A stretch of 64,000 bases of DNA from Chiloscyllium plagiosum (lineage: Eukaryota), in NCBI RefSeq assembly GCF_004010195.1, contig NC_057718.1:71784433-71848432 (forward strand). Direction: 5' to 3'. The translations under genes were made by a program, and so were the position numbers. Positions 15,487-58,995 of the stretch are shown here, piece by piece. The notes under the pieces are model-generated. The model was given only the letters and a program-made list of their open reading frames with translations. It did no database searches and was not told the DNA's origin. Position 1 is the first letter of the stretch. Each line of letters begins with the position of its first letter.

Positions 15487-15698
15487 CTGAAAATGTGTTG
15501 CTGGAAAAGTGCAGCAGGTCAGGCAGCATCCAAGGAGCAGGAGAATCGACGTTTCGGGCCTGAGCCCTTCTTCAGGAATTTTCGGGCTCAGGCCCGAAAC
15601 GTCGATTCTCCTGCTACTTGGATGCTGCCTGACCTGCTGCGCTTTTCCAGCAACACATTTTCAGCTCTGATCTCCAGCATCTGCAGTCCTCACTTTCT
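15487..15698. mobile_element. Penelope-like family 1 short palindromic insertion (two inverted terminal repeats)
   Basis: ~90-bp inverted arms; TSD-like ccttattcactctgtag / ccttgttgactctgtag; hammerhead motif on the minus strand at 15548-15575. Confidence 0.88.
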
Positions 15699-17808
15699 CC
15701 TTGTTGACTCTGTAGATAAGTAGGTCTCTTGGCGGGGTGCCCGGATCACACACTTCTCCTTCTTAGGCATATGCCTGCCTTGGAAAAGTGTCTTTGGATT
15801 ATATTCAAGTTCTCTAAATGTTCCTTATTTGTTTTCCCTATTATTAGTAAGTCCTGTAGGTAAATGGCAACCTGAGGTGGACCTTGCAAAATGTTTTCCA
15901 TTGTATGCTGAGAACCTGAACAGGCTGTCGTTACCAAAAATGGCAGTCTCGTATCCTGGTATAAGCCCTTAAGGGAAGTAATTGTAGCATACTTCTGGGA
16001 ATCATCATCTAAATGCAATTATGTGTAACTTCATGAAGGATAGCACTCCCTTTCAGCTTTGTGTATAAGTCCTCAATTTTAAGGATTGGTTATTTATTCA
16101 GCTTTGTAAAGCGGTTTACCTATTGTTATTAATCCCCACAAAGGCAAATCAACATTCGGGCTTCAAGCTCAGTATGACCAGTGCTGCCCACTCCACAAAT
16201 TGGATTGATTTGATGATTACTCCACCTTCCAGTCTTCTGATTTCTGCCTCTACTTTTTCCCATAAGACAAATGACACTGGGTATGCCTTGCGGAATCATG
16301 GAATTGTTTCCTGGGCAACACAAAGGTGGTCATGTCTCCTCTGCTAGTCCCTAAATCTACCTAGAACTTCCAAGTATTTAATTATGACTTCACTCAGGCA
16401 GCCATTTTCTAATTGAAAAATGTTGAGCCAATCTAGATGAATCTCTCGTAACCAATTGCACCCCATCAAGCGTGGGCCTCAGCTATTATTACAATCGCTG
16501 TAATTGAATACGCCTATATTTTTTACGCAGAGACAACTGTACGACTGATTTCTTCAGGATCATTTTATTACTCTTATTGCCACTAAACTAACTCCAAAGA
16601 GGTGGTATCCCATCACCTAGCAACCCTTATTTATACATGAACAGTCTTTGACTTTAATATTGCCTCAAATTAATAGCCCCAATCAGCGAATTCATATTCT
16701 ATGTGATCCAGCTGGCTGACCTAGTAACAATCACCATACTGCCATGCTACCCCAACGACAATATTAGGCAGGATACTGTTTGATTGGAAATCCACATTTG
16801 TCATGTGGAAATCTTTTTAAAAGCTAATTTGCTCGAATTCAGGAATAGCATGTTCCTGTGAGGATACAAGATGAAAATAGCAAGATTCAGGAGCTTTAGA
16901 TGATGAAATGTTGACAGTTCAGTCAAAAGGAAAAGGAAGTATATGTAAAGTTTACGAAACTGAAACTGAATAAGGCTGTTGAGGATTATGAAAGAAGCAG
17001 ACAAGAACTTAAGCAAGAAATTAGGAGAGCTAGAAGACATCATGAAATGTCATAGGCAAGAAGGATTAACGGGAAATCCCAAGGCGTTTTACACATATTT
17101 TAGGAGCAAGAGGGTATCTAAGGAAAAGATAGGTCCACTCAAAGACCAAAGAAGGAATTTATGCGTGGAACTGGGTGAGGCTCTAAATGAGTACTTTGCA
17201 TCAGAATTCTGGAACAAGTTGACATTAAGGAGAAATAACTCATGCTGTGTGACCTGAAAAATACTAAGGTAGATAAATCCACAGGGACAGATGGAATCTA
17301 TCCCAGGATACTGAAGGTGGTGAGGAAAGAGATTGCTGGGGTCTTACCAGAGATCTTTACAGTGTCTTTAGACTCAGGTGAGATCCCAGAGAACTTGCAA
17401 ATAGCCATGATAACAGGGATAATCTCGGAAGTTATAGGCCATTAAGCCATCCATCGGAAATTCTTGGAAAAAGATTTACTTGTGTTTGGAGACTTTTTAG
17501 GGATGGTCATCATGGCTTCACGTGGGAGAGACCTTGTCTCACAAACATGATTGAGATTTTTGAACAAGTAAAGATAATTGATGAGGGTAGGGCAGTGGAT
17601 GTTGAAAACACTTGACAAGGTCCCTCATTATAGGTTGGTAAGGAAGATTAAGTTGCATGACATCCATTGTGAGGTGGTAAGTTGGATACAAATTTGGTTT
17701 GGTCACAGAAGACTTAGGGTAGGTGAAGGGGAGTGCTTTTCTGAGTAGAAGTCTGTAATTAGAGGTAATCCGTAAGGTTCAGTGCTGGGACCCTTGTTGT
17801 TTTAAGTA

Positions 17809-17957
17809 CAGGTTGTTCTGCTCCGATGCATGTTTTGTCAGTGTGAATTGGCTATAATGCAATTGATGAATTGTGGATGTTGTTTGGACAATGCAAACTT
17901 TCTACTTTTCTGTGGTTACAGAGAAACACCGCTGTCGTGTTATAGCAAAACGACCTG
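17809..17957. mobile_element. 149-bp Tc1/mariner-Tigger-type MITE
   Basis: TIRs CAGGTTGTTCTGCT ... AGCAAAACGACCTG, flanked by TA on both sides; it interrupts a CR1 RT. Confidence 0.8.
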
Positions 17958-18514
17958 TATGATTTGGATGAAAATATAGATGGTCTGATAAGTAAAGTTG
18001 CAGACATGAAAATTGGAGTTGTGGATAGTGAAGAAGGTTATCAAAGGTACAGCACGGCAGAGGCCTTGCAAACAGAGTTTAAGCCAGACAGAGTTTAAGT
18101 GTGATGTGATGAATCTTGTAAGGCCAAATGCAAGAGAGAAGTACACAGTAAATGGCTAGACCCTTAGGTGCATTGAGCGATCCTGGGGTCCAAATCCACA
18201 GCTCCCTGAAAGTGGCAACACAAATGGATAAGGTGGTAAAGAAGGCATTTGGCATGGTTGCCTTTTGTCACTCAGAGTTTTGACTATAAGACTATAAGAT
18301 ATGTTGCAGCATTATAACACTTTAATTAGGCCACGTTTGGAATATTGTGTGCAGTTTTGATCATTGCACTACAGGAAGGATGCAGAGAGTTTGGAGAGAA
18401 TGCAAAAAACATTTATCAGAATGTTGCCTGGATTGGAACATATTGGAGAGATTGGTCAAATATGGATTGTTTTCACGACAGCTTCGAAGGTTGAGGGGCT
18501 GACCTTGTAGAAGT

Positions 18515-19290
18515 AGAGCAAATCTTTTATTAATGGGTGCCTGTGGGACCAGGAGTCTGCTAGTTGATCAAATATTCTGGACAATGAAGAGGTCCACATA
18601 ATCAATGTAAAAACACACAATAATTAATAGCAACATAATGCAGCATGTATACACATCACTGTTATACTTTATTTAAAGCATAACTCACTTAAATAATAAT
18701 GCAACTTTGACTTAAATAAAACGTACTGCTGCCTCACAGCGTCAGGGACCCAGGTTGAATTCCAACCTCAGGAAACTCTCTGTGTGGAGTTTGCGCATTC
18801 TCCCCGTGTCTGCGTGGGTTTCCTCCAGGTGCTCCGGTTTCCTCCCACAGACCAAGCTAAATTACCCATAGTGGTCAGGGATGTGTAGGTTAGGTGCATT
18901 AGTCAGGGGTAAATGTAGGGGAATGAGTCTGGGTGGACTACTCTTCAGAGAGTCAGTGTGGACTTGTTAGGCCGAAGGGCCTGTTTTCACATTGTAGGGA
19001 CTATATTTTAAAAAAGCGCATTCTCACATGCACCCTCAACTGACTGCTCAGATATTGTGTTAGATAGCAGCATTTGAGGATAAATCAACTTGAAATTGAA
19101 TGAACTGTTGATATTTTATGAGGCCATTCAATTGAACAACATGCATATTGACACTAAGGTAATAAATTAAAAACTATAAACATTTCACAGAATAATTCAG
19201 TAAACTCTGCTGTATTTGAATGATATCATGTTTGCCAAATTATTGAGAGAGCCAGTTCATAAGGTGTCTGTTAAAACAAAGTTTGCTACA
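18515..19290. mobile_element. Decayed Tigger-like non-autonomous element carrying an HE1 SINE (18725-19005)
   Basis: Weak terminal inverted match (agcaaatctttt / aaaacaaagtttgct); it interrupts CR1 at the L.E.YK motif. Confidence 0.5.
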
Positions 19291-20489: not shown

Positions 20490-23350
20490 ATTAAAACAGA
20501 AGCGACTGAGGAGGATTCCAGGAGTCAGCTCAGTCACCACTGACTGCCCAGGAATAAATAAAAAAGGAGGCAAGCTGTAGCAGAATGGCCATTTTTGGAC
20601 TGGCCAGTTTGAGAAGGACTGCTTTGGAGGTGAACTGATGCTTGAGGCTTAAGTGTGGGCTTTAGTGAATATCAGGCTTCGGTGAGGAGGGCAACCAATA
20701 AAGAGGGAAGGTAAGATTCTCTGCCTTGTCTTAGCATGAAGGGATAGAGATGGCAGTTAGGCCTGCCAGATTTGGGAGATCAGGGAGCAGTCCAGTATCC
20801 CTGACAACTATGTGTGCAGAAGTCTGACCAGCTGCAGCACACAGTTCAGTTGGACAGGCAATCATACACACTGAGGAGCATACACAGGGCAGAGAGTGAG
20901 ATAGACACTAGTTAGAGTGATGTGGTCACACCACAGGTTCAGTCAGGTAGATGGGTCCCTTCTCTAACAGTTACACACTTTTGGATAATATTGGGGCGAG
21001 TAGCCTCTCAGAAGAGTATAACAGCAGCAGCAGGCCTGTGGCACCACGACTAGCTCTGCTGTACAGCAAGATCAAGGCAACGTCCAAGCTAGTATTAGTA
21101 GTAAGGAATTCGTTAGTCAGGGGCACAAACAGGAATGTCTGTGACTGCAATCCAGACTCCAGGATGGTGTGTTGCCTCCCTGGTGCTAAGTCAAGGATAT
21201 CTCTGAGCAGTTGCATGAAATTTTTAAGGTGAGGATGAGCAGCCAGAAGTTGTTGTACATATTGGTACCAATGTCATTGGGAAGAAAAGTGATGAGGTCT
21301 TGAAGAGTGATTATAGGGAGTTAGGCAGAAGGTTAAAATGCAGGACTTCAAGGGTAGTAATTTCTGAACTAATTCCTGTGCCACATGTTAATGAGAGTAG
21401 GAATAGGAGGATTGGCCAGATGAATGTGAGGCTTGAGAACTGGTGCAGGGGTCAGGGATTTAAATTCTTGGATCATTGGGATCACTAGGACACAGTGAGG
21501 ACTGCAGATGCTGGAGATCAGAGTGTAACAGTGTGGGACAGGAAAAGCATCAGAGAAGCAGGAGAGTTGACGTTTCAAGCATTAGCTCTTTATCAGGAAT
21601 GTGGGGTAGGGGTTTGCGGCCAAGAGGGCTGAGAGATAAATGGCAGGGGGGATGGTGCTGGGAGCTAGGTGGCTGGAAATGTGATAGGTAGATGAAGGTG
21701 GGGAGTGATGGTGATAGGTCGGAGTGGAGGGTGGAATAGATAAGGTGAGAAGGAAGATGGACAGGTAGGACAGTTCAAGAGGGCGGTGCTAAGTTGGAGG
21801 GTTGGATCTGGGATAAGGTGGGGGGAGGGGAAATATGGAAACTGATGAAATCTACATTGATCCCATGTGGTTGCAGGGTCCCAAGGCGAAAGATGAGTTA
21901 TTCTTTCTCCAGGCATCGGGTGGCTAGAGTTTAGCGGTGGAGGAGACCTAGGCCTTGCATGCCCTTGGAAGAGTGGGAGGGGGAATTGAAATGTTCGCCC
22001 ATGGGCAGTGGGATCGTTGAGTGTGTGTGTCCCAGAAATGTTCCCTGAAATGTTCCGCAATGTAGAGGAGATCACATCGAGAGCAATAGACACAGTAGAT
22101 GACGTGTGAGAAGGTGCAGGTAAATTTCTGAGTGATGTGGAAGGATCCTTTGGGAAGGAGGTATGGGTCCTCACCTTCAACCCCACCAACATCTGGATGC
22201 AACACATCATCCTTCACCATTTCCACCACCTACAAACAGACCCCACCACCAGAGATATATTTCCCTCAGTGAGGGGGTAGGTATGGCCACAAATTTTGTA
22301 CCTCTTGCTGTGGAAAGGGAAGGTGTCAGGAGTGAAAGGTGGGTTGATGGGGGCATGGACCTAACAAGGGAGTCACGGAGGGAATGATCTCTGTGGAATG
22401 CAGATAGGGCTAGGGATGGAAATATATCCCTGGTAATGGGGTCTGTAGTTGGCAGAAAAGACGGAGGATGATACATTGTGTCCGGAGATTGGTGAGGTGG
22501 AAGATGAGGACCCTCACCTCTTTCACATCCGACAGAGATTTACCTGTACCACCTCACACATCATCTACTGTGTCTGTTGCTCTCGAAGTGGTCTCCTCTA
22601 CATTGGGAAGACAGGACGCCAACTTGTGAAACATTTCAAAGAATATTTCTAGGACACACGTACTAAACAACGCCACCGCCCTGTAGCCAAACATTTTAAC
22701 TCCCCCTCCCACTCTGCCAAGGGCATGCAAGGTCTGGGCCTCCTCCACCACCAAACTCTAGCCACCCAACACCTGGAGGAAGAACGACTTCATCTTCCGC
22801 CTTGGGATCCTCCAACCACATGGGATCAATGTTGTTTCACCAGCTTCCTCATCTCCCATGACCCCACCTTATCCTAGATCAGCCCTCCAACTCGGCACCA
22901 CCCTCTTGTACTGTCTTACCTGTCCATCTTCCTTCCCACCTGCCTGCTCCACCTTCCACTCTGACCTATCATCACCACTCCCCACCCTCATCTACTTATT
23001 GGATTCCCAGCTAGCTTACCCCCAGCTCCACACCCCCACCAATTTATCTCTCAGCCCTCTTGGGCCACCCCCACATTCCTGATGAAGAGCCTATACTCGA
23101 AACATCGACTCTCTTGCTCCTCAGATGCTGCCTGACCTGCTGTACTTTTCCAGATAAGATGTTTAGACTCATTGGGATCTCTTCTGGAGTAGTGGTGACC
23201 TGTACAACACTGACAGACCAATATTCTGGCAGGGAGATTTGCTTGGGAGGATGTAAACCAGTTTGGCAGTGGGGTGGGATCCAAAACAGTAGAGATATAA
23301 AACAGAAGGTTGAGCACAGGACAGAGATTAATCAGAGCAAGTTAAATCAT
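20490..23350 (+). mobile_element. CR1 5' region/ORF1 esterase, interrupted by a Penelope pair
   Basis: NSYTLLD...VRNSLVRG...MVCCLPGAK; RELGRRLKCRTSRVVIS...FKFLDHWD. Confidence 0.85.
21484..23168. mobile_element. Older Penelope-like (Neptune-type) inverted composite insertion
   Basis: GIY-YIG motif HIIYCVCCSRSGLLYIGKTGR on + and a mirror copy on -. Terminal repeats with decayed hammerhead motifs at both ends. TSD tcattgggatc at 21473-21483 and 23169-23179. Confidence 0.88.
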
Positions 23351-25515: not shown

Positions 25516-25525
25516 CCTATTTATG

Positions 25526-29700: not shown

Positions 29701-30748
29701 ATGTCATGGAGCCAACTAGAGACCTGGTAACTTTAGATTTGGTATCATGTAACGAAGAACGATTGATAAATGGTCATTAAGGAACCTCATGGAAGGAGTG
29801 ACCATAACAAGCCAGAGTTTCAAATTCAGATTGAAAGAGCGAAGACGGAGTTGCATTTTAACACTAGCCTGACGAAGGAATTGGCTAAGAGATTTTGCAA
29901 TTATATTAAAGAGCAGGACAGTTGAAGTACAGTGGCAAATGTTTAGGGAGATACTAAATACTAAATAACTTAAATACGAAATAACATTTATTCCTGAGAG
30001 GAAGAGGGATTGTAAAAACGGGAAAAATTATCATTGGCTTAACAAGGAAGTCAAGAATAACATAAAGGCATATCATTACTCCAAACGTTAGTGGCACAGT
30101 GGAGGATTGGAAGAATTTTAAGTGTCAGTAAAGTGTTACTATAAGTGAAATTTAAAAAAAAGCTAAGGTGAACTAGGAAAGGAAACTAGTACAAAACATA
30201 TGTCCTTGTACCAAAAGCTTCTATAATTATGTAAAAAGGAAGAGAATAGTGAAAGTAAATGTTGGTCCTTTAGAGTACAACACTGGCGAGGTAATAATTG
30301 GAAACTTAGAAATGGCATAGGCATTAAACCAATATCCTGTCTCTGTTTTCACAGTGCAAGATAACAATTTCTTCCCTAAAATTGTGGTTACTATAGAGTA
30401 ACTTGGTTAAGTTACTATAACTAGGGAGAAACATAGAACATAGAACGTTACAGCGCAGTGCAGACCCTTCCCACCCTCAATGTTGCGCAGACCTGTGAAA
30501 TTACTCTGATGCCCAGCTAACCTATACTATTCCATTATTATGTCCAATGCCTATTTAAATGCCCTTAACATCACTGAGTCTACCACTGTTGCAGTCAGAC
30601 CATTCCACGCCTCTAGTAAAGAAATTACCCCTGATATCTGTTCTAAATCGATCACGCCTCGATTTACAGCTATGTCCCCTCGTTTTCGCCTTCACCATCT
30701 GAGGAAATAGGCTCTCACTGTCCACCCGATCTGATTACCTTATACGTC

Positions 30749-31233
30749 CTCAGTGCTTGGGAGCCTCCTGTGAAGCGCTTCTGTGATCTTTCCTCCGGTA
30801 TTTGTAGTGGTTTGAATCTGCCGCTTCCGGTTGTCAGTGGTCGGTATATTGGGTCCAGGTCGATGTGCTTATTGATTGAATTTGTGGATGAGTGCCCTGC
30901 CTCTAGGAATTCCCTAACTGTTCTCTGTTTGGCTTGTCCTATAATAGTAGTGTTGTCCCAGTCGAATTCATATTGCTTGTCATCTGTGTGTGTGGCTACG
31001 AAGGACCCAATATACCGACCACTTCAGCGGACAGCTGGAACTGACGACCGGAAGCGGCAGATTCAAACCACTACAAATGCCGGGGGAAAGATCACAGAAG
31101 CGCTTCACAGGAGGCTCCCAAGCACTGAGGGTGTCATCTAGACAGGGGACGAAAAATCTGCAATGCAAATTCCCAGCTCGGCGAACAGAACCACAACAAT
31201 GAGCACCCGAGCTACAAATCTTCTCACAAACTT
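30749..31233. mobile_element. Penelope-like family 3 insertion with inverted segment
   Basis: Perfect 17-bp TSD tgattaccttatacgtc (30732-30748, 31234-31250); GIY-YIG C-terminal part on - followed by the terminal repeat on +; decayed hammerhead motif at 31125-31158. Confidence 0.88.
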
Positions 31234-31526: not shown

Positions 31527-32405
31527 TGAAAAATGTGTTGCTGGAAAAGCGCAGCAGGTCAGGCAGCATCCAAGGAGCAGGAGAATTGACGTTTCGGGCA
31601 TAAGCCATTCTTCAGGAATTAGTAAGGTGTGCCAAGCAGGCTAAGATAAAAGGTAGGGAGGAGGGACTTGGGGGAGGGGCGTTGGGAGTTGCCATGGTCT
31701 GGCGATGGAGGAGGCCAAGGACCTGCATGTCCTTGGCGGAGTGGGAGGGGGAGTTAAAGTGTTCAGCCACGGGGTGGTTGGGTTGGTTTGTCCAGGTGTC
31801 CCAGAGGTGTTCTCCGAAACGTTCCGCAAGTAGGCGGCCTGTCTTCCCAATGTAGAGGAGACCACATCAGGTGCAGCGGATGCAGTAAATGATGTGTGTG
31901 GAGGTGGAAGTGAATTTGTCACAGATATGGAAGGATCCTTGGAGGCCTTGGAGGGAAGTGAGGAGGGAGGTGTGGGCGCAAGTTTTGCATTTCTTGCGGT
32001 TGCAGGGGAAGGTGCCGGGAGTGGAGGTTGGGTTGGTGGGGGGTGTGGACCTGACGAGGGAGTCACGGAGGGAGTGGTCTTTTCAGAATGCTGATAGGGG
32101 AGGGGAGGGAAATATATCCTTGGTGGTGGGGTCTGTTTGGAGGTGGCGGAAATGACGAAGGATGATACGATATATCTGGAGGTTGGTGGGGTATTGGTGA
32201 GGACCAGTGGGATTCTGTCCTGGTGGCAATTGGAGGGACGGGTTCAAGGGCAGAGGAGTGGGAAGTGGAGGAGATGCGGTGGAGAGCATCGTCAATCACG
32301 TCTGAGGGGAAATTGCGGTCTTTGAAGAAGGAGGCCATCTGGGTTGTTCGGTATTGGAATTGGTCCTCCTGGGAGCAGATGCGGCGGAGGTGAAGGAATT
32401 GGGAA
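31527..32405 (-). mobile_element. Penelope-like family 1 (Neptune-type) 3' fragment
   Basis: SQFLHLRRICSQEDQF, a CxxxxCxxC linker and GIY-YIG; TSD tca(a/c)tctgggt; hammerhead motif at 31588-31615. Confidence 0.9.
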
Positions 32406-35015
32406 TCACTCTGGGTGGCAACTTTCAGGGACTTATGTACTCGAACACCGAGATTTCTCTGTTCAGCTACCAAAAATTCCACATTAGCCCAGTACTCTGC
32501 ATTCCTGTTAGTTCGTCTGAAATGAACTACCTCACACCATTCCGTATTAAACTCCATTTGCCACTACTCAGCCCAGCTCTACATCTTATCTATGTCCCTC
32601 TGTAACTCACAACATCCTTCGGCACTACCCACAACTCTGCCTACCTTAGTGTCATCTGCAAATTTACGCCCACACCCAGATCATTTATAAAAATGACAAA
32701 CAGCAGTGGCCCCAAAACAGATTCTTGTGGCACACCACTGGTAACTGAGCTCCAGAATGAATGTTTCCCATCAACCACCACCCTCTGTCTTCTTTCAGGC
32801 AGCCAATTTCTGATCCAAACCGCTAAATCACCTTCAATCCCTAAACTCCGTACTTTGTGCAATAGCCGTACTGTGTGGAACCTTATCAAACGCCTTACTG
32901 AAGCCCATATACACCACATCAACCGCTTGACCTTCATCCACCTGTTTTGTCACCTTCTCGAAGAACTAAATAAGGTTAGTTAGACACGACCTACCCTTCA
33001 CAAAATCGTGCTGACTCTCCCTAATCAAATTATCCTTTTCAAGATGATTATAAATCCTGTCTCTTAAAACCTTTCCCAGCACCTTACCCACAACACAATT
33101 AAGCTTACTGGTCTTGTAATTGCCATGGTTGTCCCGACTCCCCTTCTTAAACAAGGGAACAACATTTGATATCCTCCCATCTTCTGGCACTACTCCTTCG
33201 ACAATGATCAAAGGCAAAAGCTCTGCAGTCTCTTCCCTGGCTTCCCAGAGAATCCAAGGATAAAGCCCATCAGGTCCAGGGGTCTTACTATTTTCAGATC
33301 TTCCAAAATTGCTAAAACTTCCTCTTTGTCAGCCACAATCCCATCTAATCTAGTAGCCTCTATCTCCGTATTCTCATTAACATTGCCCTTTTCCAATGTG
33401 AATACTGACAAAAAGTATTCATTATGCGCTTCCCCATGTACTCAGATCCGACACACAACTTCCCACTACGTCTTTGATTGACCCTAATCTTATTCTATTA
33501 AGTATTAAGTAAACTGATGGGATTAAAGACAGTTAAGTCCATGGGGCCTGACTGCCTGCACCCAAAAGAAGCAGAGATAGTGGATGCATTAATTATGATT
33601 TTTCAAAATTCTCTGGGATCTGGAAAGGTACCAGTAGATTGGAAAATTGCTGGTGTGACACCCTTATTCAAAAAAAGACATAGGAAGATAGTGGGAAACT
33701 ACAGACAAGTTAGTCTGACTTCTGTAGTGGGTAAGTTGCTGGAATCAATCTTTAGGGAGGTAAATAAACATAGAGACAAAATGTCAAGCAGGATAGAAAG
33801 AGACTCTTTGGTCCAACCAGTCATACAGACATAGAGATGTGCAGCATGGCAACAGACCCTCCGGACCAACCTGTCCATGCCGACCAGATATCCCAACCTA
33901 ATTTAGTCCCACCTGTCAGCACTCAGCCCATATCCCTCCAAATCCTTCCTATTCATATACCCATCCAGATGCCTTATAAATGTTGAAATTGTACTGGCCT
34001 CCACCTCTTCCTCTGGCAGCTAATTCCATACACATACCACCCTCTGCACGAAAAAGTTGCCCCTCAAGTCTCTTTTATATCTTCCCCTCTCACCTTAAAC
34101 CTATGCCCTCTAGTTCTGGACTCCCCCACCCAAGGGAAAAGACTTTGTTTATTTATCCTATCCAATGCCCCTCATGATTTTATAAACCTCCATAAGGACA
34201 CCCCTCAGCCTCTGACACTCCAGGGAAAACAGCCTGAGCCTATTCAACCTCTCCCTATAGCTCAAATCCTCCAACCCTGGCAACATCCTTGTAAATCTTT
34301 TCTGAACCCTTTCAAGTTTCACAACGTATTTTCGATAGGAAGGAGACCAGAGTTGCATGCAATATTCCAACAGTGGCCTAACCAATGTCCTGTACAGTCG
34401 CAAAATGACCTCCCAACTCCTGTACTCAATACTCTGGCCAATAAAGGAAAACATTCCAAACACCTTCTTCACTATCCTATCTACCTGTGACTCCACCTTC
34501 AAGGAACTATGAACCTGCACTCCAAGGTTCCTTTGTTCAGCAACACTCCCTAGGACCTCCCTAGAACACTCCCTAAGTCCTGCTAAGATTTGCTTTCCCA
34601 AAATGCATCACCTCTCATTTATCTAAATTAAACTCCATCTGCCACTTCTCAGCTCACTGGCCCATCTGGTCAAGATCCCGTTGTAATCTGAGGTAACCTT
34701 CCTTGCTGAATACTGCACCTCCAATTTTGGTGTCATCTGCAAACTTACTAACTATACCTCTTATGCTCACATCCAAATCATTTATACAAATGATGAAAAG
34801 TAGTGGACCCAGCACCAATCCTTGTGGCATTCCACTGGTCACAGGCCTCCAGTCTGAAAAACAACCCTCCACCACCACCCTCTGTCTTCTACTTTTGAGC
34901 CAGTTCTGTAACCAAATGGCTAGTTCTCCCTGTATTCCATGAGTTCTAACCTTGCTAAAAATGTGTTGCTGGAGAAGCGCAGCAGGTCAGGCAGCATCCA
35001 GGGAACAGGAGAATC

Positions 35016-35043
35016 GACGTTTCGGGCATAAGCCCTTCTTCAG
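35016..35043 (-). ncRNA. Minimal hammerhead ribozyme motif (Penelope terminal repeat)
   Basis: CUGAAGA-A-GGGC-UUAU-GCCC-GAAA-CGUC: both conserved core boxes, a 4-bp helix II and a GUC site. Confidence 0.8.
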
Positions 35044-35158
35044 GAATGAGGAAAGTTTGTCCAGCAGGCTAAGATAAAAGGTAGGGAGGAGGGATTTGGG
35101 GGAGGGGCATCGGAAATGCGATAGGTGGAAAGAGGTCAAGGTGAGAGTGATAGGTCAG

Positions 35159-36720: not shown

Positions 36721-39700
36721 ACATGTCCATGTACATCCTGTCTTTCACGATTCTCTCCAATACCTTGCCCACCACTGACGTCAGGCTCACTAGTCTATAG
36801 TTCTCTGGCTTGTCCCTTACCACTTTTCTTAAACAGTAGCATCACGTTAGTCAACCTCCACTCTTCTGGCACCTCACCTGTGACTAGCGATGCTACAATA
36901 TCTCAGTAAGAGGCCAAAATTCACTTCCCTAGCTTCCCACAGAGTTCTAGGGTACACCTGGTCAGGTCCTGGGGATGTATCCACTTTTATACATTTCAAG
37001 ACATCCAGCATTTCCTCCTCTGTAATATGGACATTTTTCAAGATGTCACCATCTATTTCCCTCCATTCTATATCTTCCGTGTCCTTTTCCACAGTAAACA
37101 TTGGTGCAACATACTCGTTTAGTATCTCCCCCATCTCCTGCGACTCCACACAAAGGCCCTCTTGCTGATCTTTAAGAGGCCCTATTCTCACCCTAGTTAC
37201 TCTTTTGTCCTTAATGTATTTGTAAAAACCCTTTGGATTCTCCTTAACTGTATTTGCCAAAGCTATCTCATATCCCCTTTTTGCCCTCCTGATTTCCCTC
37301 TTAAGTATACTCCTACTCCCTTTATACTCTTCTAAGGATTCACTCGATCCATCCTGTCTATACTAGACATATGCTTCCTTCTTTTTCTTAACCAAACCCT
37401 CAATTTCTCTCGTCGTCCAGCATTCCCTACATCTACCAGCCTTCCCTTTCACCCTAACAGGAATATACTTTCTCTGGACTCTCGTTATCTCATTTCTGAA
37501 TGCTTCCCATTTTCCAGTCGTAGATTACCTGTTAACCTCTGCCCCCAAACAGCTTTTGAAAGTTCTTGCCTAATACTGTCAAAATAGGCCTTTCTCCAAT
37601 TTAGAACTTCAACTTTTACCTTGCTGACCATAATGCCAAATGAAGTTAGTCCCACCTGCCTCTGCCTGGACCATATCCCTACAAACACTTCTTATTCACA
37701 TATTTATCTAAACGTCTTTTAAACGTTGAGACACATTTATCACTTCCTCTGGAAGTTCATTCCACACAAAGTTGTCCCTCATGATTTTGAAAAAATCTTT
37801 CTCTTCTCACCCCAGTCTTGAAATACCCCACTCTAGGGAAAAGATACCTGCCATTCATTTTATCTATACCCCTTGTGAGCAATGAACGCAAGTAGGCTAA
37901 ACACATTCTTATCCACTCTATCTATCTGTGACAGAAACTTCAAAGAATTGTGTACCTGAACCCCTAGGTCTCTCTGTTCTACAACACTACAATAAGGCCT
38001 TACTTTTAATTGTATAAGTCCTGCTTTGTTAGCTTTACCAAAAAAAATTTGGAAAAACAAAGCTCAGTTCACCAGTTATCAGCACTGTTTCATGAAGGGC
38101 AAGTCATACTTGACAAACTTGCTGGACTTCTTTTAGGATGTAACCAGCAAGGTGGATAATGGGAACCCAGTAGATGTAGTATATCTAAACTTCCAGAAGG
38201 CATTTGACAAGTTGCCACATAAAAGATTGATCCAAAACATTAGACTTGTGTGGATTAAGGGTAGAATATTGACTTTGATAGAAGATTGGCTGACTGACAG
38301 AAAGCAGAGGGTTGGGATAATTAGGTCCTTTTCTGGATGGCGATCCGTAACTCACAGAATGCCGCAGGGTTCAGTTCTCAGACCTCAACAATTTACAATA
38401 TATAGAAGTGATCTGCAGGCAGGGACAGAATGTAATATAGAAAAGTTAGTGGATACACTAAAATAGATGGGAAAGCAGGCAGAGATGAGAAGATAAGAAT
38501 TTACAGATGGATATTAATAGGCTAGGAGAATGGACCAGAATCTGGCAGATGTAGTTTCATGTGTGACAGTATGAGATTATCCATTTTAACCTGAAAGATT
38601 AAAGGGCAAATCATTATTTAAGTGGTAAGCCGATTCAAAGTGTGTCACATAGAGAGATTTAGGCGTCTTTGTGCATGAATCACAATAAGTGAGCATGCAG
38701 GTACAACATATAATAAGAAAGGCCTATGGAAACCTGGCATTTATTGCAAAAGGACTGGATTATAAAAATAAAGAAGTGGTGTTACAATTATAAAGCATTC
38801 ATGAGATTACATCTGGAATATTGTGTCCACGTTTAGTCTCCGTATTTGAGGAAGGAAGCGGTGCACTGGAAGCATTTCAGAGAAGATTCACAAAGCAGTT
38901 GAATATCTTAGGCTTTGTACTCATTGGAGTTCAGATGTATGAGGGTGGATCTGATTGAGGTATATAAAATGCAAAGGGGATTGATAAGATGGATGTTGAA
39001 CAGATGTTTCTCCTTGAGGGACAGCTTGAACAACAGGTCATGGATATACCATGTGAGATAATATAGGTTCAAAACTGAGAGGAGGAGAAATTACTACTCT
39101 CACAAGGTTGAGAATGTGTGGAAATCACTGCCCCAGAGTGCAGTGGAGCCAGAATCAATCAACAAGTTCAAGAAAGAAATAGATATGTTTCTGATTTTAA
39201 AAAAAAGGAGAAACAGATATTGGAGAGGAGGCAGAAAGTGAAATTGAAACCAGGATAAAATCAGCCATGATTGTGTTGAACAGCAGAGTGGGCTGAAAGG
39301 GCTGAATTGCCTTCTCCTGATCCAAATTCCTATGTTCCTGTGATATGGTCAGATTGGCTAAATAGAGACAAATGGAATTTAATCCAGATAAATGGTTATA
39401 CACTTGGGCAGGACAAACAAGCCAAAGGAATACATGACGAACATTAGGACCTGGGGAAGCACCAAGGATCAGAGATACTTAGGTGTGCATGTACACTGGT
39501 CCCTTAAGGTAGATAGGTGGATAAATTAATTAAGAAGGCATATGGTATACTTGCCTTTATTTGTTGTCGAGCCAGAGCTTAGCTTAACAGCAGGGAGATG
39601 TGTTCGGAGAAAAAATGTTGGTTAGACCATAGCTTCAGTACTGAGTACAGGTCTGGAATCCAAAATTAGGAAGGATATTATAGCAATGCAAAGGGTGCAG

Positions 39701-43753: not shown

Positions 43754-43847
43754 CTGCACCCAGATTACTTGGTAGAAATGAAGCCAGTCCCACAATCTTG
43801 AACTTTGTCCCCCAGATGTTGGATGTGACTTGAGCAAGATAGTTGTG
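43754..43847 (-). CDS. TULP4: Next internal coding exon of TULP4 (94 bp)
   Basis: Acceptor ctgttttttcag| and donor |gtagga. It is in frame with the previous exon across a 489-bp intron and encodes HNYLAQVTSNIWGTKFKIVGLASFLPSNLGA(+1 nt), the conserved TULP4 block. Confidence 0.95.
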
Positions 43848-43885: not shown

Positions 43886-44001
43886 TATACTGTTATTAAA
43901 TTTAATGCTTAACTGTAGAAAATTTGAACTCAACGTTAGGGTATATACTGTTATTAAATTTAATGCTTAACTGTAGAAAATTTGAACTCAACGTTAGGGT
44001 A
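43886..44001. repeat. Perfect 58-bp tandem duplication in the short TULP4 intron
   Basis: tatactgttattaaatttaatgcttaactgtagaaaatttgaactcaacgttagggta x2. Confidence 0.95.
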
Positions 44002-44336
44002 TACTTTTGAACAAAGTCAGGCTGACAATTGATCTTTGAGTGATTAACATTCATACTGGATTTAAAGAGGCTAATGTTCACTCTCTAACAAGAACAGCTA
44101 TGATCTGAACACATTCCAAATTTAAGACTAGACAGTTCTTCAATGCGCAGTTAACATTTGCAGTATGCATTTTTTTAAGACCTTTCTTTTTTTGTGTTCT
44201 TTTGCACGATATATGTACTTACTAAAAGTAAATTTTGAAAGTCAATTTGCACTTAATACGAATTAATGGCTTAATGGCTTTAACGAATTAAGAATAACTC
44301 CAGTAAAGAATCAAACAAAGCCATCCAGCTTCATAC

Positions 44337-44481
44337 CTGAGTGACATCTTCTAAAGGAAATTCCTTCCGAGTTAAGCTTGGGGATCCAATGGAAGGTTTC
44401 CTAATTGGTAATCGTGGAGACTTTGATATCTCCTGACTAGCTCGAGAAAGTTTGGGTGATTTTCTAGCATCGAGATTAATT
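44337..44481 (-). CDS. TULP4: Internal coding exon of tubby-like protein 4 (145 bp)
   Basis: On the minus strand the acceptor is tttttcaccag| and the donor is |gtatga. After 1 nt it translates without stops as INLDARKSPKLSRASQEISKSPRLPIRKPSIGSPSLTRKEFPLEDVTQ, matching my recollection of vertebrate TULP4 (...RKSPKLPRAAQELSRSPRLPLRKPSVGSPSLTRREFPFEDITQ). Confidence 0.93.
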
Positions 44482-48094: not shown

Positions 48095-48640
48095 CACAGA
48101 TCCCTTGGCATCGTGGTAGCCCACAAACCCACTAACACACTAAAACAGCAGCTAATGAACTTGAAAGACTATACAGACAAAACAAATGTCATTTACAAAA
48201 TACCGTGCAAGAGCTGTAACAAATACTACATTAGACAAACAGGCAGAAAACTAGCCACCAGGATACATGAACATCAAATAGCCACAAAACGACATGAGCC
48301 CCCCTCTCACTGGTATCCTTACACACAGATAAGGAAGAACACCACCTCGACGGGGACAACACATCCACCCTAGGACAAGCCAAACAGAGACACGCACGAG
48401 AATTCCTAGAAGCATGGCATTCCAACTGGAACTCTATCAACAAACACATTGACTTGGACTCCATTTACCACCCTCTGAGACAAAGAACTGGAAATGACCT
48501 CATCTACCCAGGGAAACCCAAACATAACACCAAACACCAGCAATGCTTCGTCCGGAAGCTCACTGAAGATGTCACCTAGTTACGGTGATGAAACATCTGA
48601 AAATGAACCTTCCAGCTCAGCGAGCAAACCTACATCCAGA
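48095..48640 (+). mobile_element. Penelope-like family 3 (Poseidon-type) 3' fragment
   Basis: GIY-YIG NVIYKIPCKSCNKYYIRQTGRKLATRIHEH; TSD accaca(c/t)caa; hammerhead-like CUGAAGA-UGUCACC..GGUGAU-GAAACAUC at 48563-48597. Confidence 0.88.
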
Positions 48641-50030
48641 ACCACATCAATCACTTTACATTCATCCACCTGTTTTGTCACCTTCTCGAAGAACTCAATA
48701 AGGTTAGTTAGGCACAATCTACTCTTTACAAAACTATGTTGACTATCCCTAATCAAATTATTGTTTTCCAGATGATTATAAATCCTATCTCTTATAACCT
48801 TTCCCAAGACTTTACCCACAATACAATAAGGCTCACTGACCTATAGTTACCAGGGCTGTCCCGACTCACCTTAAACAAGGGAACAACATTTGCTATCCTC
48901 CAGTCTTCTAGCACTATTCTTGTCAACAATGATGACATAAAGATTAAAGCCAAAGGCTCTACAATCTCGTCCCTGGCTTCCCTGAGAATCCGAGGATAAA
49001 TCCCATCTGGCCCGGGGAACTATTTTCAGATTTTCCAAAATTGCTAAAACCTCCCCTTTGTCAACCAAAATCCCATGTAATCTAGTAGCCTGTACTTCCA
49101 TGTTCTCACCAACATTGCCCTTTTCCAACGTGAATAATGATGAAAAGTATTTATTAAGCGCTTCCCCTATGTCCTCAGATTCCACACACAAATTCCCACT
49201 ACTGTCTTTGATTGGCCTAAATCTCACTCTAGTCATTCTTTTATTTCTGATATACCTATAGAAGGCCTTAGGGCTTTCCTTGATCCTATTCACCAGCAAT
49301 TTCTCATGTCTCCTCCTGGTGCTTCTTAGCCCTCTCTTTACATCTTTTCTGGCTAACTTTCAAGCCCCCTAACTGAGCCTTCATGCCTCATCCTCAGATA
49401 AGCCTTCTTCTTTCTCTTGACAAGAGCTTTAACTTCTTTAGTAAACCATGGCTCCCTCTCTCGACAATTACCTCCATACCTGTTAGGTATACAGCCCATA
49501 GTAGCTGTTCCTTGAATAAGCTCCACATTTCAACTGTGTTCATGGATAGGATGAAGAGTCAGAATCTTTCTACAAGATTGGAAATGGCAAATATCAGGAG
49601 GTTTGGGGTTAAGGTGAGAGGGAAAAAGTTTAAAGGTGATGTGTGAGGAATATTTTTTTAACATAGAGTGATTTAGGTGCCTGGAACACACTGCCAGGGA
49701 AGGTGGTACAATCAGAGATGATAGCAATATTTAGCCACGTGAACAGACAGGCAATAGAGGGATATGGACCATGTACAGACAGATGGGATTAGTTTAGAAT
49801 GGTATCATGGTAGACTAAAGGGTCTGTTCCTGTTCTGTACATTCCTTTCTGATGCAAAAATACATCAGGAAAAGTGACTCAACCATGGCCAACCAAAGAG
49901 ATTAAGGGCAATCACAGATCCAAACAGGAGTGATAAACATTTCTAGAAAAAGGAAGAAATTTGAGGATTGGGAGCAGTTTAGAATTTAGCAAAGGAGGAC
50001 CAAGATTTTGATGAAGAGTGGAAAATACAG

Positions 50031-52360: not shown

Positions 52361-52364
52361 TTTT

Positions 52365-53459: not shown

Positions 53460-54187
53460 TAGGTAAAAACAATGACTGCAGATGCTGGAAACCAGATTGT
53501 GGATTAGTGGTGCTGGAAGAGCACAGCAGTTCAGGCAGCATCCAAGGAGCAGTAAAATCGACGTTTCGGACAAAAGCCCTTCATCAGGAATAAAGCCTGA
53601 AGCATGGAGAGATAAGCTAGAGGAGGGTGGGGGTGGGGAGAAAGTAGCATAGAGTATAATAGGTGAGTGGGGGAGNNNNNNNNNNNNNNNNNNNNNNNNN
53701 NNNNNNNNNNNNNNNNNNNNNNAGGCGTCTGGTGGTGAGGGAGTGGCGGTGAAGGAGGCCCAGGACCTCCATGTCCTCAGCAGAGTGGGAGGGGGAGTTG
53801 AAATGTTGGGCCACAGGGCGGTGTGGTTGATTGGTACAGATGTCCTGGAGATGTTACCTAAAGCGCTCTGCTAGGAGGCGTCCAGTCTCCCCAATGTAGA
53901 GGAGACCGCATCGGGAGCAACGGATACAATAAATGATATTAATGGATGTGCAAGTAAAACTTTGATGGATGATAGGGCCTTGGATGGAGGTGAGGGAGGA
54001 GGTGTGGGCGCAGGTTTTGTAGTTCCTGTGGTGGCAGGGGAAGGTGCCAGAATAGGAGGGTGGGTTGTAGGGGGGCGTGGACCTGACCAGGTAGTCACGG
54101 AGGGAACGGTCTTTGCGGAAGGCGGAAAGGGGTGGGGAGGGAAATATATCCCTGGTGGTGGGGTCTTTTTGGAGGTGGCGGAAATGT
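53460..54187 (-). mobile_element. Penelope-like family 1 variant, 3' fragment, in a CR1 3' end (~52710-54305); contains the 47-N gap 53676-53722
   Basis: GIY-YIG region (AQHFNSPSHSAEDMEVLGL); hammerhead motif at 53560-53587. Confidence 0.85.
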
Positions 54188-54303
54188 CAGCCCCGAGTTC
54201 CCAACCCTGGGAAAAGACTGAGTGCATTCACCCTTTCCAGGCCTCTCATGATCTTATACCATTCCACAAGATCTCCCCTCAGTCTTCTCTGTTCTAAAGG
54301 AAA

Positions 54304-54500
54304 AAGTCAAAAATCACACGACACCAGGTTATAGTCAAAGGTGTTTATTTAAAAACACTAACTTTTGGAGCACTGCTCCTTCATCAGGTGTCAGTGAGCT
54401 CACTAACACCTGATGAAGAAGCAGCACTCTGAATGCTAGTGGCTTCAATTAATCCCATTGGACCAAAACCTGGTGTCAAATGATTTTTGACTTTGTCCAA
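54304..54500. mobile_element. Older Penelope-like family 2 palindromic insertion
   Basis: Same arms as 36207-36436, with two decayed CUGAUGA motifs back to back. Confidence 0.75.
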
Positions 54501-54689: not shown

Positions 54690-56560
54690 ACAACTGTCAC
54701 CTCACCCTTCCAGAGTAGGTCCCTCTATATTCTGCATGAGGAACCTTGCCTGAACACACTTAACAAATTCCACCCCATCTAAGCCCTTAACACTATGACA
54801 GTCCCCTTCTTGAACCTCTGCAGTCCCACTTGCAATGGGTTGACCCCCAATGCCATTCGGGAGGGAATTCCAAGATTTTAACCCAATGACAGTGAAGGAA
54901 CACCAATATATTTCCAAGTCAGGGTGGTGAGTGACTTGGAGGGAAATTTGAAGGTGGTCGTCTTCCCACATGACTGCTGCCCTCATTCTTCTAGATGGAA
55001 GTGGTTGTAGGTTTGGAAAGTGCTATCTGAGAATCTTTGGTGAATTTCTGCAATACATCTTGTAAACAGTACATTGCTGAAAATGTGTTGCTGGAAAAGC
55101 GCAGCAGGTCAGGCAGCATCCAAGGAACAGGAGAATCGACGTTTCGGGCATAAGCCCTTCTTCAGGAATGAGGAAAGTGTGTCCAGCAGGCTAAGATAAA
55201 AGGTAGGGAGGAGGGACTTGGGGGAGGGGCGTTGGAAATGCGATAGGTGGAAGGCGACCGTCGGGTTGTTGTGGTTTGGCGGTGGATGAGTCCAATGACC
55301 TGCATATCCTCGGTGGAGTGGGAGGGGGAGTTGAGATGCTGTGCTACAGGTTGGTTGGGTTGGTTCGTCCGGGTGGCCCAGAGGTGCTCCCTGAATCGCT
55401 CCGCAAGTAGGCGGCCTGTCTCCCCAATATAGAGGAGGCCACACCGGCTGCAGCGGATGCAGTAGATGATGTGGGTGGAGGTGCAGGTGAATCTGTGGCG
55501 GATATGGAAGTTTCCCTTGGGGCCTTGGAGAGAAGTGAGGGGGGAGGTGTGGGCGCAAGTGTTGCACCTCCTGCGGTTGCAAGGGAAGGTGCCGGGAGTG
55601 GTGGTTGGGTCGGTGGGGGGTGTGGATCTGACAAGGGAGTCGCGGAGGGAGTGGTCTCTACGGACAGCTGATAGGGGAGGGGAGGGAAATATATCCTTGG
55701 TGCTGGGTCTGTTTGGAGGTGGCGGAAGTGACGGCGGATGATGCGCTGTACATGGAGATTGGTGGGGTGGTAGGTGAGGACCAGTGGGGTTCTGTCCTGG
55801 TGGCGGTTGGAGGGGCGGGGCTCAAGGGCGGAGGAGCAGGAAGTGGAGGAGATGCGGTGGAGGGCATCGTCGACCACGTCTGGGGGGAAATTGTGGTCTT
55901 TGAAGAAGGAGGCCATCTGGGTTGTACGGTTCTTGAACTGGTCCTTCTGGGAGCAGATGCAGTGGAGACGAAGGAATTGGGAATATGGGACGGCGTTTTT
56001 ACAGGGGGCAGGGTGGGAGAAGGTGTAGTCTAGGTAGATGTGGGAGTCGGTCGGTTTATAGTAAATGTCCGTGTTGATTCGGTCGCCCGAGATAGAAATG
56101 GAAAGGTCTAGGAAGGGGAGGGAGGAGGCTGCTACGCTGCTACAAGTTGCAGCTAGTACTGAGTGTTGGAGGGAGTGGATGCTTGTGAATGTGGTGTCAA
56201 TCAAGTGGGCTGCTTTGTCCAGGATAGTGTCAAGCTTCTTGAGTGTTGTTGGGACTGCACTCATCCAGGCAAATGAGGAGTTTTCGATCACCAACCTGAC
56301 GTGTGCCTCATAGATGGTGGACAGGCTTTCGGGAGTCAGCTAAGTTACTTGCCACAGCATTTCTCGGCTCTGACCACAGCATATATGTGGAGAGTCCAGT
56401 TAAACTTCTGAACAATGATAACTCCCAGGATGTTGACAGTGGGGGATTTGGTGATGGCAACATCATTGAATGTCAAAGAGCGGTGGTTAGATTGTCTCTG
56501 TTGGTGATGGTCACAGTCTGGCATTTATGTGGCATGAATGTTATTTGCCACTTTTCAGCT
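54690..56560 (-). mobile_element. L2-clade LINE 3' fragment interrupted by Penelope
   Basis: WMSAVPTTLKKLDTILDKAAHLID; FTVIGLKSWNSLPNG. Confidence 0.78.
55077..56130 (-). mobile_element. Penelope-like family 1 (Neptune-type): RT thumb, Zn linker, GIY-YIG and terminal repeat
   Basis: LPFLDLSI...TDIYYKPTDSH.YLDY.FSHP...YSQFLRL; CNRRRCNTC; HIIYCIRCSRCGLLYIGETGR; intact hammerhead motif at 55138-55165. Confidence 0.93.
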
Positions 56561-57279
56561 AAAGTCCTTCCTGTCTGGCCCAGGTTAACAATTTCAACAA
56601 AGAATCGCAAAGTTAACAAGATCCATCTGGTTCCAGTCACTTGACACTCCATCCCTATAACCCTTTACACCATTGGCAATCAGAAATCTATTAATCTCTT
56701 CCTTAAACATATTCAAGACGGAGTTTCATCAAGCCTCTGTTGGAGAGAATTCCAAGAGTTCACAACACTCCAAGTTAAAAAAAAATCTGATCTTGCATCT
56801 TCGGCCAACACTGTTTGCACTGAGCATTCATCTTAATGTAAGATCAACTTAACCTACACACCCCTCAATTTACTGCAGTCCAGGTGCATGTCCAGCAGTC
56901 GCTTAAATGTCCCTAATGTCTCTGACTCTACTATCACCACTGGCAGTGCATTCCATGCACCTAACACTCCCTGCGTAAAGAACCTAACACTAACATCTCC
57001 CCTATACTTTCCTCCAATCACCTTAAAATTATGACCCCTCTTGACAGCTATTTCTGCCCTGGGGAAACACCTCTGGCTATCTACTCTATGCCTCTCATTA
57101 TCTTGTACACCCCCATCAAGTCACCTCTCTTCCTTTATCTCTCCAGTGTGAAAAGCCCTAGCTCACTCAATATCTTGTCATAAGACACGCCTCCATATCA
57201 GGCAGCATCCTGGTAAATTTCCTCTGGATCCTTTCTAAAGCATTTACATGCTTTCTATAATGAGGCCATCAGAACTGGA

Positions 57280-57378
57280 GTTGAAAAGTGTGGTGCTGGA
57301 AAAACACAGCAGGCCAGGCAGCATCCGAGGAGCAGGAGAATCGATGTTTCGGGCATAAGCCCTTCTTCAGGAATCATG
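57280..57378 (-). mobile_element. Penelope-like family 1 solo terminal repeat
   Basis: Perfect 13-bp TSD catcagaactgga; hammerhead variant at 57343-57370. Confidence 0.88.
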
Positions 57379-57974
57379 CATCAGAACTGGACACAATATT
57401 CCAAGTGTGGTCTAACCAGGGGTTGATAGAGCTGCAGCAAAACCTCATGGCTCTTAAATGCATTCCCCCTGCTAATGAAAGCCAAAACACCATAGGACTT
57501 CTCAACAACCCCATCAACTTGGGTGACAACTTTAAGGGATCTATGTACGTGAAGCCCAAGATCCCACTCACTATTCCTCCACACTGCCAAGAATCCTATC
57601 TTTAACCCTGTATTCAGCATTCAAATTCGACCTTCCAAAATGAATAACTTTGCATTTATCCAGGTTGAACTCCATCTGCACTTCTCAGCCCAGCTCTGAA
57701 TCCTGTTCTAGTCTGCAACAGCCCTCAACATTATCTACAACACCAGCGACTTCTATGTCATCGGCAAACTTACTAGCCCACCCTTCCACTTCTTCATCCA
57801 AGACATTTATAAAACTACAAACAGCAGAGGCCCAAGAACAAATCCCTGATCACCAACTTCCATGCAGAATTCTTCACATCCACTACCACCCGCTGTCTTC
57901 TTTTGGTCAGCCAATTCTGTACCCAGACAGCCAAATTTCCCCGTATCCCATACCTTCTAACTTTCTGAATGAGC

Positions 57975-58201
57975 TGAAAAATGTGTTGCTGGAAAAGTGC
58001 AGCAGGTCAGGCAGCATCCAAGGAGCAGGAGAATCGACATTTCGGGCATAAGCCCTTCTTCAGGAAATAGGATTCCTGAAGAAGGGCTTATGCCCGAAAC
58101 GTCGATTCTCCTGCTTCTTGGATGCTGCCTGACCTGCTGCGCTTTTCCAGCAACACATTTTTCAGCTCTGATCTCCAGCATCTGCAGTCCTCACTTTCTC
58201 C
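57975..58201. mobile_element. Penelope-like family 1 short palindromic insertion
   Basis: Perfect 16-bp TSD aactttctgaatgagc; ~90-bp inverted arms; hammerhead motifs at 58036-58063(-, variant) and 58076-58103(+). Confidence 0.92.
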
Positions 58202-58904
58202 AACTTTCTGAATGAGCCTACTACTGAGAACCTTATCAAATGCATGTCATCCAAAAGATTGTCAACCGCGCCCCAGTCTCTGAAACACCGTTAGAGAACC
58301 CAGACATGATCCTTTTCACAGATGGCTCCAATTTTCGGCCCTCAGGTCACCAAATGCTAGCTGGCTACGTGATATGCACACCGTTTGAAACCCCTGAATC
58401 GGCTGCACTGCTATAAGGGAGTTCTGTGCAAGCAGCCCAACTGTTTGCCCTTACCAGAGCCTGTATACTTGTTGACAAAAGGTCTATTAACATTTACACA
58501 AACTCCAAATCTGCCTTTGGAGTGGTACATAATTTTGGAACCCTGTGGAAACATAGACAATTCATTACCTCTTCTGGAAGGCCCCTGCAGCATGCCCTGT
58601 TCATCAACAACCTTTTACAGGCTATTATACTCCCCTCTGCCTTAGCTGTGATAAAGTATGCCACTCATACTGCTGTTGAGGAAATGCTTCCACTGACCAA
58701 GCTGCTAGACAAGCAGCATTAGCTCCCACTGTATGGGTTCTACAAGCTCCCAAGGCAGGGGAAACAACAAAGGTTTTACAGCTAGTCCAGGGGATACGGG
58801 CAGCACAACACGTTTCACAAGCCGAGAAAGACAGCTGGGCATGCATAGGAGCTACAAAATCCCTTTTAGGGCGAATGATGCACCCTGATGGAAGGTTCAT
58901 ATGC

Positions 58905-58995
58905 CCTGAAGAAGGGCTTATGCCCGAAAAATCGATTCTCCTGTTCCCTGGATGCTGCCTGACCTGCTGCGCTTTTCCAGCAACACATTTTCAGC
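58905..58995 (+). mobile_element. ~90-bp Penelope family 1 repeat inserted in ERV pol
   Basis: TSD tatgccct (58900-58907, 58996-59003); the insert starts at the CUGAAGA core. Confidence 0.88.

Follow-up and report, generated by a model that had tools for sequence, protein, structure and literature searches.

Does a ribozyme carried by a transposable element cut the transcript of a host gene when it lies in sense within the introns of that gene? The question is raised by a 64,000-nucleotide stretch of the Chiloscyllium plagiosum genome (NC_057718.1, positions 71,784,433–71,848,432 of the forward strand; hereafter the window), which contains part of the TULP4 gene and numerous Penelope-like element (PLE) insertions bearing hammerhead ribozyme motifs. 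The hammerhead observation is confirmed in the window, where 19 motif-bearing arms were assigned to 14 insertions of three families. The Penelope hammerheads in the TULP4 pre-mRNA are very probably inert passengers, excised along with introns that have not been cut. All positions given below are those of the window, and individual motifs are named by their 5' coordinate, such that 55165 denotes 55138–55165(-) and 36011 denotes 36011–36038(+).

The generic hammerhead core pattern produced 15 matches in the window compared to 2.82 ± 1.72 expected from shuffled sequence, and none of 100 shuffles gave as many as 15. The family-1 28-mer matched 11 times with three or fewer mismatches, while each of 100 shuffles gave zero. 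Five of these matches are exact (35016–35043(-), 36687–36714(-), 55138–55165(-), 36011–36038(+) and 58076–58103(+)), and a sixth copy at 15548–15575(-) differs by two loop changes. A preliminary description of the window had placed these same six copies, and all of its coordinates were right. Its estimate of about 14 insertions in three families also matches the count obtained by self-alignment and inspection with degenerate arms included; two further arms (15584–15701 and 30748–30838) end inside or before the core and are outside the 19. The description left out helix I, and many of the motifs are paired arms within a single insertion. The full core is also kept in sense by 53560–53587(-) and by the family-2 motif 36264–36292(-). 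The motifs had been called dense, which is true, but there is no sign of a density above the genome norm. An Rfam scan of the window gave eight matches at E ≤ 5, none to a hammerhead family. These matches are weak or chance hits of miRNA-hairpin and other types, five of them on palindromes. The missing Rfam hammerhead match is not counted against the motif because the motif is without helix III.

The preliminary description was right to take the motifs for minimal type I hammerheads of the Penelope type; their helix III is palindromic and of the dimer kind. The monomer has no helix III, and a palindromic 15.1–16.1 stretch is present. All three families feature an extra nucleotide after position 9 and ahead of 10.1, before helix II (U in family 3, A in the other two), along with G10.1–C11.1 and a palindromic 15.2–16.2 pair, for which family 2 has G-C and the other two families C-G. 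Families 1 and 2 are also unlike in the sequences of helix II and helix I (covariation by inspection), and this pair switch with differing helices fits a presumed selection on structure in active parent elements. Helix I of family 1 is composed of 2 bp, a U.U mismatch and one A-U pair, and helix I of families 2 and 3 is 3 bp long. The minimal hammerhead ribozymes (min-HHRs) described for metazoans in the pseudo-long terminal repeats (pLTRs) of Penelope-like elements (Cervera and de la Pena 2014, PMC4209133) share the type I core, the absence of a monomer helix III, the palindromic 15.2–16.2 pair, the extra nucleotide before helix II, G10.1–C11.1 and the pLTR location. As in the window, they occur mostly solo, with some close opposite-strand pairs and several families per genome. 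The two contiguous helix I pairs of family 1 are fewer than the 4–5 bp of Schistosoma and equal in number to those of the D. virilis variant (PMC4209133). Sharks are not named in the available portion of the main text of that paper, and searches of the open-access literature brought up none given over to Penelope hammerheads of sharks or to host pre-mRNA being cut by them; the supplements of PMC4209133 and of a preprint on Xenopus retrozymes (bioRxiv 10.64898/2026.07.22.740005) may list shark motifs.

When scored against the min-HHR core (CUGANGA, GAAA, NUH and G10.1–C11.1), nine of the 19 arms are competent and the rest are decayed. Seven competent arms are in sense (15575, 35043, 36292, 36714, 53587, 55165 and the wobble-bearing 58063) and two are antisense (36011 and 58076), with 36317 borderline. 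This 7 to 2 distribution gives P = 0.18, and all core matches together give 9 to 6 (P = 0.61). The proposed depletion of intact motifs in sense is therefore not seen in the window, which shows a sense excess, if anything, contrary to what had been predicted, in a tiny sample of non-independent arms.

The insertions are 5'-truncated copies of three Penelope-like families whose pLTR bears the element's own minimal hammerhead, making them a new sample of a known motif. Families 1 and 3 carry the motif downstream of GIY-YIG fragments on the same strand. Of 299 candidate homologues of the family-1 GIY-YIG sequence, 65 pass a threshold of E ≤ 1e-10, and the named ones are chondrichthyan. At 55300–55671(-), a CX4CX2C linker is followed by a CxxC within the endonuclease. 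Family 1 is assigned a Neptune-type linker because CX2-5CxxC precedes a C-terminal GIY-YIG with CCHH, an arrangement whose linker is common to Nematis too. Matches to three full-length homologues all begin at or after residue 576 of 894–897 (693 of 1010), and therefore no window copy encodes the reverse-transcriptase core; a tblastn search with the full-length homologues found no such core among the window fragments. Family 3 encodes a different endonuclease fragment without a visible linker, which we take to resemble Penelope/Poseidon. No open reading frame (ORF) was found in the window for family 2, and its structure alone suggests a Penelope origin. Neptune-clade endonuclease-containing (EN+) elements (Craig et al. 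2021, PMC8557442) likewise have a C-terminal GIY-YIG, the CX2-5CxxC linker, 5' truncation, inverted adjacent copies and a one-sided tail of 30–40 bp, whereas the window holds fragments only, without a reverse-transcriptase core for phylogeny. The insertion hallmarks of EN+ PLEs observed here are 5' truncation, inverted arms in six of 14 insertions, a one-sided 35-nt tail and target duplications in eight of 14.

Summed contig depth at 58158, within the family-1 tail, was 2.8 and 3.9 million in two DNA-type runs compared to 6–18 on unique contigs, a ratio to the unique flanks of about 10^5 that is not a copy number. This points to family 1 being very high-copy, and its abundance looks far above the 4,000–9,000 given for coelacanth and Xenopus (PMC4209133). 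The exact motif was found at zero loci in metagenome contigs, and the degenerate motif at zero loci in viral contigs and one in metagenome contigs. This locus (L001:3001–3028(-)) is a solo copy with near-identical core and helix II and a different 3-bp helix I, on a contig that gives the impression of being fish-like and not from shark.

The host gene is represented in the window by two coding exons on the minus strand, 44337–44481 (amino acids 544–592 of P0002) and 43754–43847 (amino acids 592–623), each identified by tblastn at 100% identity and bounded by AG/GT ends. Together they encode residues 544–623 of the 1537-aa shark TULP4 at 100% identity, and the 49-aa exon translation retrieved TULP4 proteins, being 100% identical to a Hemiscyllium ocellatum record. 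No further TULP4 exons were found in the window using four chondrichthyan TULP4 queries. Since the neighbouring exons are missing from the window, all of it apart from the two exons is probably intronic, with the motifs in an upstream intron of at least 19.5 kb and a downstream intron of at least 43.7 kb. The preliminary description was thus correct in placing the motifs inside a host gene with several in TULP4 sense, as both the exons and the sense motifs are on the minus strand, but not in assuming one long intron, since the copies on either side of the exons belong to different introns. A perfect 58-nt tandem duplication (43886–44003) lies in the short intron that separates the two exons, and it may be recent because the alignment of a related species' contig breaks there.

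The ends of the copies bear on whether the ribozyme had cut the RNA from which they were made. When 13 family-1 arms are aligned to the 36011 arm, seven end 62–69 nt and four end 97–98 nt past the cut site, with the others at 47 and 83, so that two clusters separated by 35 nt take in 11 of the 13 3' ends. These clusters agree with an optional 30–40 bp tail and with the two reverse-transcription starts reported for the green anole's Poseidon element PAc (Frangieh et al. 2024, PMC11167929), for which copies of uncut RNA are also described. Seven family-1 arms are short, and at the other end four of them share a start precisely 4 nt ahead of the core (15575–15579(-), 36714–36718(-), 57370–57374(-) and 58072–58076(+)). 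The remaining three begin at -1, about -9 and +8, and not one coincides with the cut site, a further 28 nt on. The probability of four of seven sharing one position is approximately 6e-4 for a uniform 40-nt zone that was chosen after seeing the data. The two family-2 arms at 36.3 kb have only 5 nt in common before the core. Cleavage products are ruled out as the source of these stubs, as none of the seven short arms starts at the cut, and so is a single short master copy, as both family-1 variants occur in long and short arms. With four of the seven starts at one position and none at the cut site, the stubs are likely copies of uncut RNA whose 5' end was fixed. Short copies with such a fixed start are not described for PAc in the available part of that report (PMC11167929).

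The fixed start could be the transcription start of the element, an identification that is preferred here, though tentatively and with somewhat less than even confidence. The stub boundary lies in a pyrimidine-A-pyrimidine context, which resembles the initiator consensus. In D. virilis the promoter of Penelope is internal and of the initiator type (PMC2377424), and rotifer pLTRs contain initiator-like motifs (PMC3846280). Rival explanations for the fixed start are an ATT preference of the endonuclease (PMC11167929), microhomology and polymerase stalling. If it is the transcription start, the ribozyme would sit at the very 5' end of the element RNA and would trim the first 32 nt with the cap, an alternative to unit-length excision.

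The proposed history of the passenger copies is as follows. The element RNA would be uncut when copied, reverse transcription would begin at one of two sites lying 62–69 or 97–98 nt past the cut site, and a second arm would often arise by fold-back. Once within TULP4, the sense copies would fail to form a double hammerhead due to a helix I of 2 bp, partners that are kilobases away and capture by antisense arms.

The alternative that survives best is that the relevant feature of the locus is the long inverted arms, which as double-stranded RNA (dsRNA) could prompt editing or splicing effects. Inverted Alu pairs are known to draw editing or affect splicing. The arms are predicted to pair strongly, with the hairpin at 15480–15705 folding at -175 kcal/mol (z -23.5) and the antisense arm 35896–36136 in the 35–36.7 kb cluster forming duplexes with the arm of 35043 at -430 or of 36714 at -250 kcal/mol. 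Editing is not in evidence: an excess of A>G and T>C changes in the RNA run is matched by the DNA-type runs and stems from other copies. This was a poly(A) single-cell RNA run (approximately 2% sampled) in which 4847 reads matched, 96% of them continuing into other loci, and no depth was present on the two TULP4 exons; no site had many molecule starts or ends, in a library type unable to show cut ends. A role of this kind is unlikely, and would be a side effect compatible with inert passengers.

There is a much slighter chance that an active Penelope protein supplied in trans, for example in the germ line, attaches to the tail of individual intronic copies and acts as a chaperone for their cleavage, no partner in cis being needed. 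The anole hammerhead cut solely when the element protein was added, including an endonuclease-dead form, and the free sense copies 55165 and 53587 retain the core and part of the tail. However, no element in the window has a reverse-transcriptase core, so the protein must come in trans, and the stubs span the cut site intact. In the anole study, the ribozyme was dispensable for insertion and RNA-seq ends at its cut site were looked for in vivo and not found (PMC11167929).

Less probable again, by a little, is the mechanism suggested in the preliminary description, in which two sense copies of the same nascent intron would associate in cis into a double hammerhead that cleaves TULP4 pre-mRNA often enough to matter. 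Two introns share the sense copies between them, at spacings of 1.2–19.5 kb, and the nearest sense copies of the same family are in separate insertions at least 1578 nt apart. Most sense motifs are predicted to be captured because six insertions are inverted pairs: of the seven that are competent, three are in their own hairpins and two compete for one antisense arm, and for these five the antisense arm is predicted to win over the dimer. In the folding model, reaching the dimer-ready state in context would cost 36, 54 and 44 kcal/mol for the hairpin-bound 15575, 58063 and 36292, respectively, and 42 kcal/mol for 36714, which meets the antisense arm 35896–36136 before its partner 35043 is transcribed. 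Given the -430 and -250 kcal/mol pairings of this arm, at most one of 35043 and 36714 would be free, and the next intact family-1 sense copy beyond them is 19.5 kb off and inside a hairpin. Family-1/family-2 heterodimers keep two of four helix III pairs. The cost falls to 4–5 kcal/mol for 55165, for 53587, and for 35043 folded without its partner arm.

The sole credible pair is consequently 55165 with 53587, the only one that is locally open, in which both cores are complete, all four helix III pairs are possible and the partners are 1578 nt apart in one intron. Axolotl retrozyme hammerheads cut more efficiently as dimers at a spacing of approximately 330–350 nt (PMC7229834), and cleavage by the intronic CPEB3 ribozyme can lower expression (PMC10919898). 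Against this pair, helix I has 2 bp and the forced double hammerhead would cost 25 kcal/mol over the free fold in its 1731-nt natural context (82 kcal/mol for 36714 with 35043). As bare 54-nt strands, the family-1 active dimer is predicted to lie 10–15 kcal/mol above the free monomers, and an inactive dimer is preferred. A Schistosoma min-HHR with longer helices was inactive as a monomer and cut weakly as adjacent dimers or trimers (PMC4209133), and of nine dimer elements from Xenopus a single one showed cutting in vitro (Li et al. 2026 preprint, bioRxiv 10.64898/2026.07.22.740005). A cut may also be harmless, as an intronic hammerhead cut left splicing unblocked while a fast hepatitis delta virus (HDV) ribozyme blocked it (second-hand, as cited in PMC2995048). 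The cis-dimer proposal is therefore not supported, given the two introns, the kilobase spacing, the antisense arms and the short helix I.

Several points weigh against reading the insertions as inert passengers. The folding energies describe equilibrium and not co-transcriptional folding, omit tertiary and protein terms, leave N unpaired and lack a positive control, so they rank pairs and are no proof of inactivity. The pair 55165 and 53587 is without a dedicated antisense arm, the nearest free one (58905–58999) being 3.7 kb upstream with a closer partner at 57278–57374. The 714-N assembly gap could conceal another sense motif beside 35043, and one window is too little to test orientation bias. 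Xenopus retrozymes are somewhat depleted from introns (bioRxiv 10.64898/2026.07.22.740005), which suggests some cost of such insertions.

Two further candidates were rejected. The non-LTR retrozymes (Cervera and de la Pena 2020, PMC7229834; Li et al. 2026) resemble the motifs described here in being PLE-related, type I and dimer-needing, with one chondrichthyan example, but are head-to-tail tandems with units below 1 kb; a tandem retrozyme is ruled out by the lack of a tandem array over any motif. A host-coopted intronic ribozyme is ruled out by the high copy number and the lack of a monomer helix III. The ultraconserved amniote intronic hammerheads and the HDV-like CPEB3 ribozyme also combine a self-cleaving motif, an intron and sense orientation, and the amniote hammerheads are single-copy, conserved and active as monomers. 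The CPEB3 ribozyme is likewise single-copy, conserved and monomer-active with a half-life of 2–3 min (PMC10919898), whereas the motifs in TULP4 are high-copy, decaying and monomer-incompetent by anatomy.

The 14 insertions are described here in window order. Target duplications of 8–17 nt were found at eight, with none convincing at the other six. The first (15485–15701) is a family-1 head-to-head palindrome with a 9-nt exact duplication, in which the sense motif 15548–15575(-) is intact and the plus arm is without the first half of the core; a private loop variant is common to both arms, pointing to fold-back copying. The second (21487–23153) is an older family-1-related inverted insertion with GIY-YIG pieces and an 11-nt duplication, and both of its motifs are decayed, with G8 changed in 21569–21596(-) and the 15.2–16.2 pair lost in 23079–23106(+). 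A family-3 inverted insertion with an endonuclease C-terminus follows (30748–31233; 17-nt duplication), its motif 31125–31158(+) decayed, and then a 5'-truncated family-1 element (31530–32404(-)) whose motif 31588–31615(-) is broken by changes at G10.1 and position 1.1. The fifth (34954–36142) is a single inverted family-1 insertion across the 714-N gap (35159–35872), and the intact motifs 35016–35043(-, sense) and 36011–36038(+) are its two arms. These 205-nt arms are 97% complementary, and a 15-nt duplication at 34944 and 36143 rules out the inverted pair as an assembly artefact. The sixth (36206–36436) is a family-2 palindrome with a 14-nt duplication, an intact 36264–36292(-) and a 36317–36345(+) damaged in helix II. 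The seventh (36587–36718(-)) is a family-1 solo stub that starts 4 nt before the core, with the long tail present and the sense motif 36687–36714(-) intact.

Downstream in window coordinates, the eighth insertion (48130–48643(+), left boundary approximate) is a family-3 element with a GIY-YIG fragment and a partly decayed motif at 48563–48597(+). The ninth (53460–54230(-), boundaries approximate) is a 5'-truncated element of a family-1 subfamily that contains a 47-N gap (53676–53722), and its sense motif 53560–53587(-) has a full core with one G.U in helix II. The tenth (54299–54494) is a decayed family-2 palindrome with motifs 54359–54387(-) and 54410–54438(+) both broken in the GAAA half. 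The eleventh (55075–56140(-)), recognised from homologues, tblastn and the linker motif, is a 5'-truncated Neptune-type element composed of a region upstream of the endonuclease, the CX4CX2C linker, GIY-YIG (Pfam E = 1e-4) and the pLTR with the intact sense motif 55138–55165(-). The twelfth (57278–57374(-)) is a family-1 solo stub starting 4 nt before the core, with a 13-nt duplication and the 15.2–16.2 pair lost in 57343–57370(-). The thirteenth (57971–58201) is a family-1 palindrome with a 16-nt duplication, a U.G wobble at 15.2–16.2 in 58036–58063(-) and an intact 58076–58103(+). The last (58905–58999(+)) is a family-1 solo stub with an 8-nt duplication, whose broken motif 58906–58933(+) lies in what serves as a free antisense arm.

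Compact head-to-head palindromes of approximately 200–230 nt recur at 15485–15701, 36206–36436, 54299–54494 and 57971–58201, three of the four with target duplications. Insertions five to seven are clustered within 1.8 kb (34400–37400), nested among long interspersed nuclear element (LINE) fragments that we take to be CR1/L2-type from the appearance of their ORFs, and several other Penelope stubs are likewise inside LINE relics. The stub at 58905–58999 is inserted into a broken LTR-retroelement pol relic (58417–60015) with weak Pfam RNase H and integrase C-terminal matches. LINE-type inverted arms of 636 nt and 86% complementarity, 4.7 kb apart (5–640 and 5343–5978), are another potential long pre-mRNA duplex. 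Both assembly gaps, 35159–35872 and 53676–53722, are inside Penelope insertions.

The motif in these 14 insertions is of an already known kind, and cleavage of the host transcript is unlikely. By itself the finding matters little, as the shark genome is full of this retroelement motif, which was known before. The role of Penelope hammerheads is described as still open in PMC8557442. It is very improbable that a ribozyme present at perhaps 10^5 copies acts genome-wide as a conditional pre-mRNA cutter, through free sense pairs such as 55165 with 53587 or through protein-bound single copies in the germ line, with fold-back arms neutralising most. So abundant a family permits a genome-wide comparison of sense and antisense copies with core-broken copies as the control, and cleavage of host pre-mRNA, if true, would expose host genes to a novel form of transposon load.

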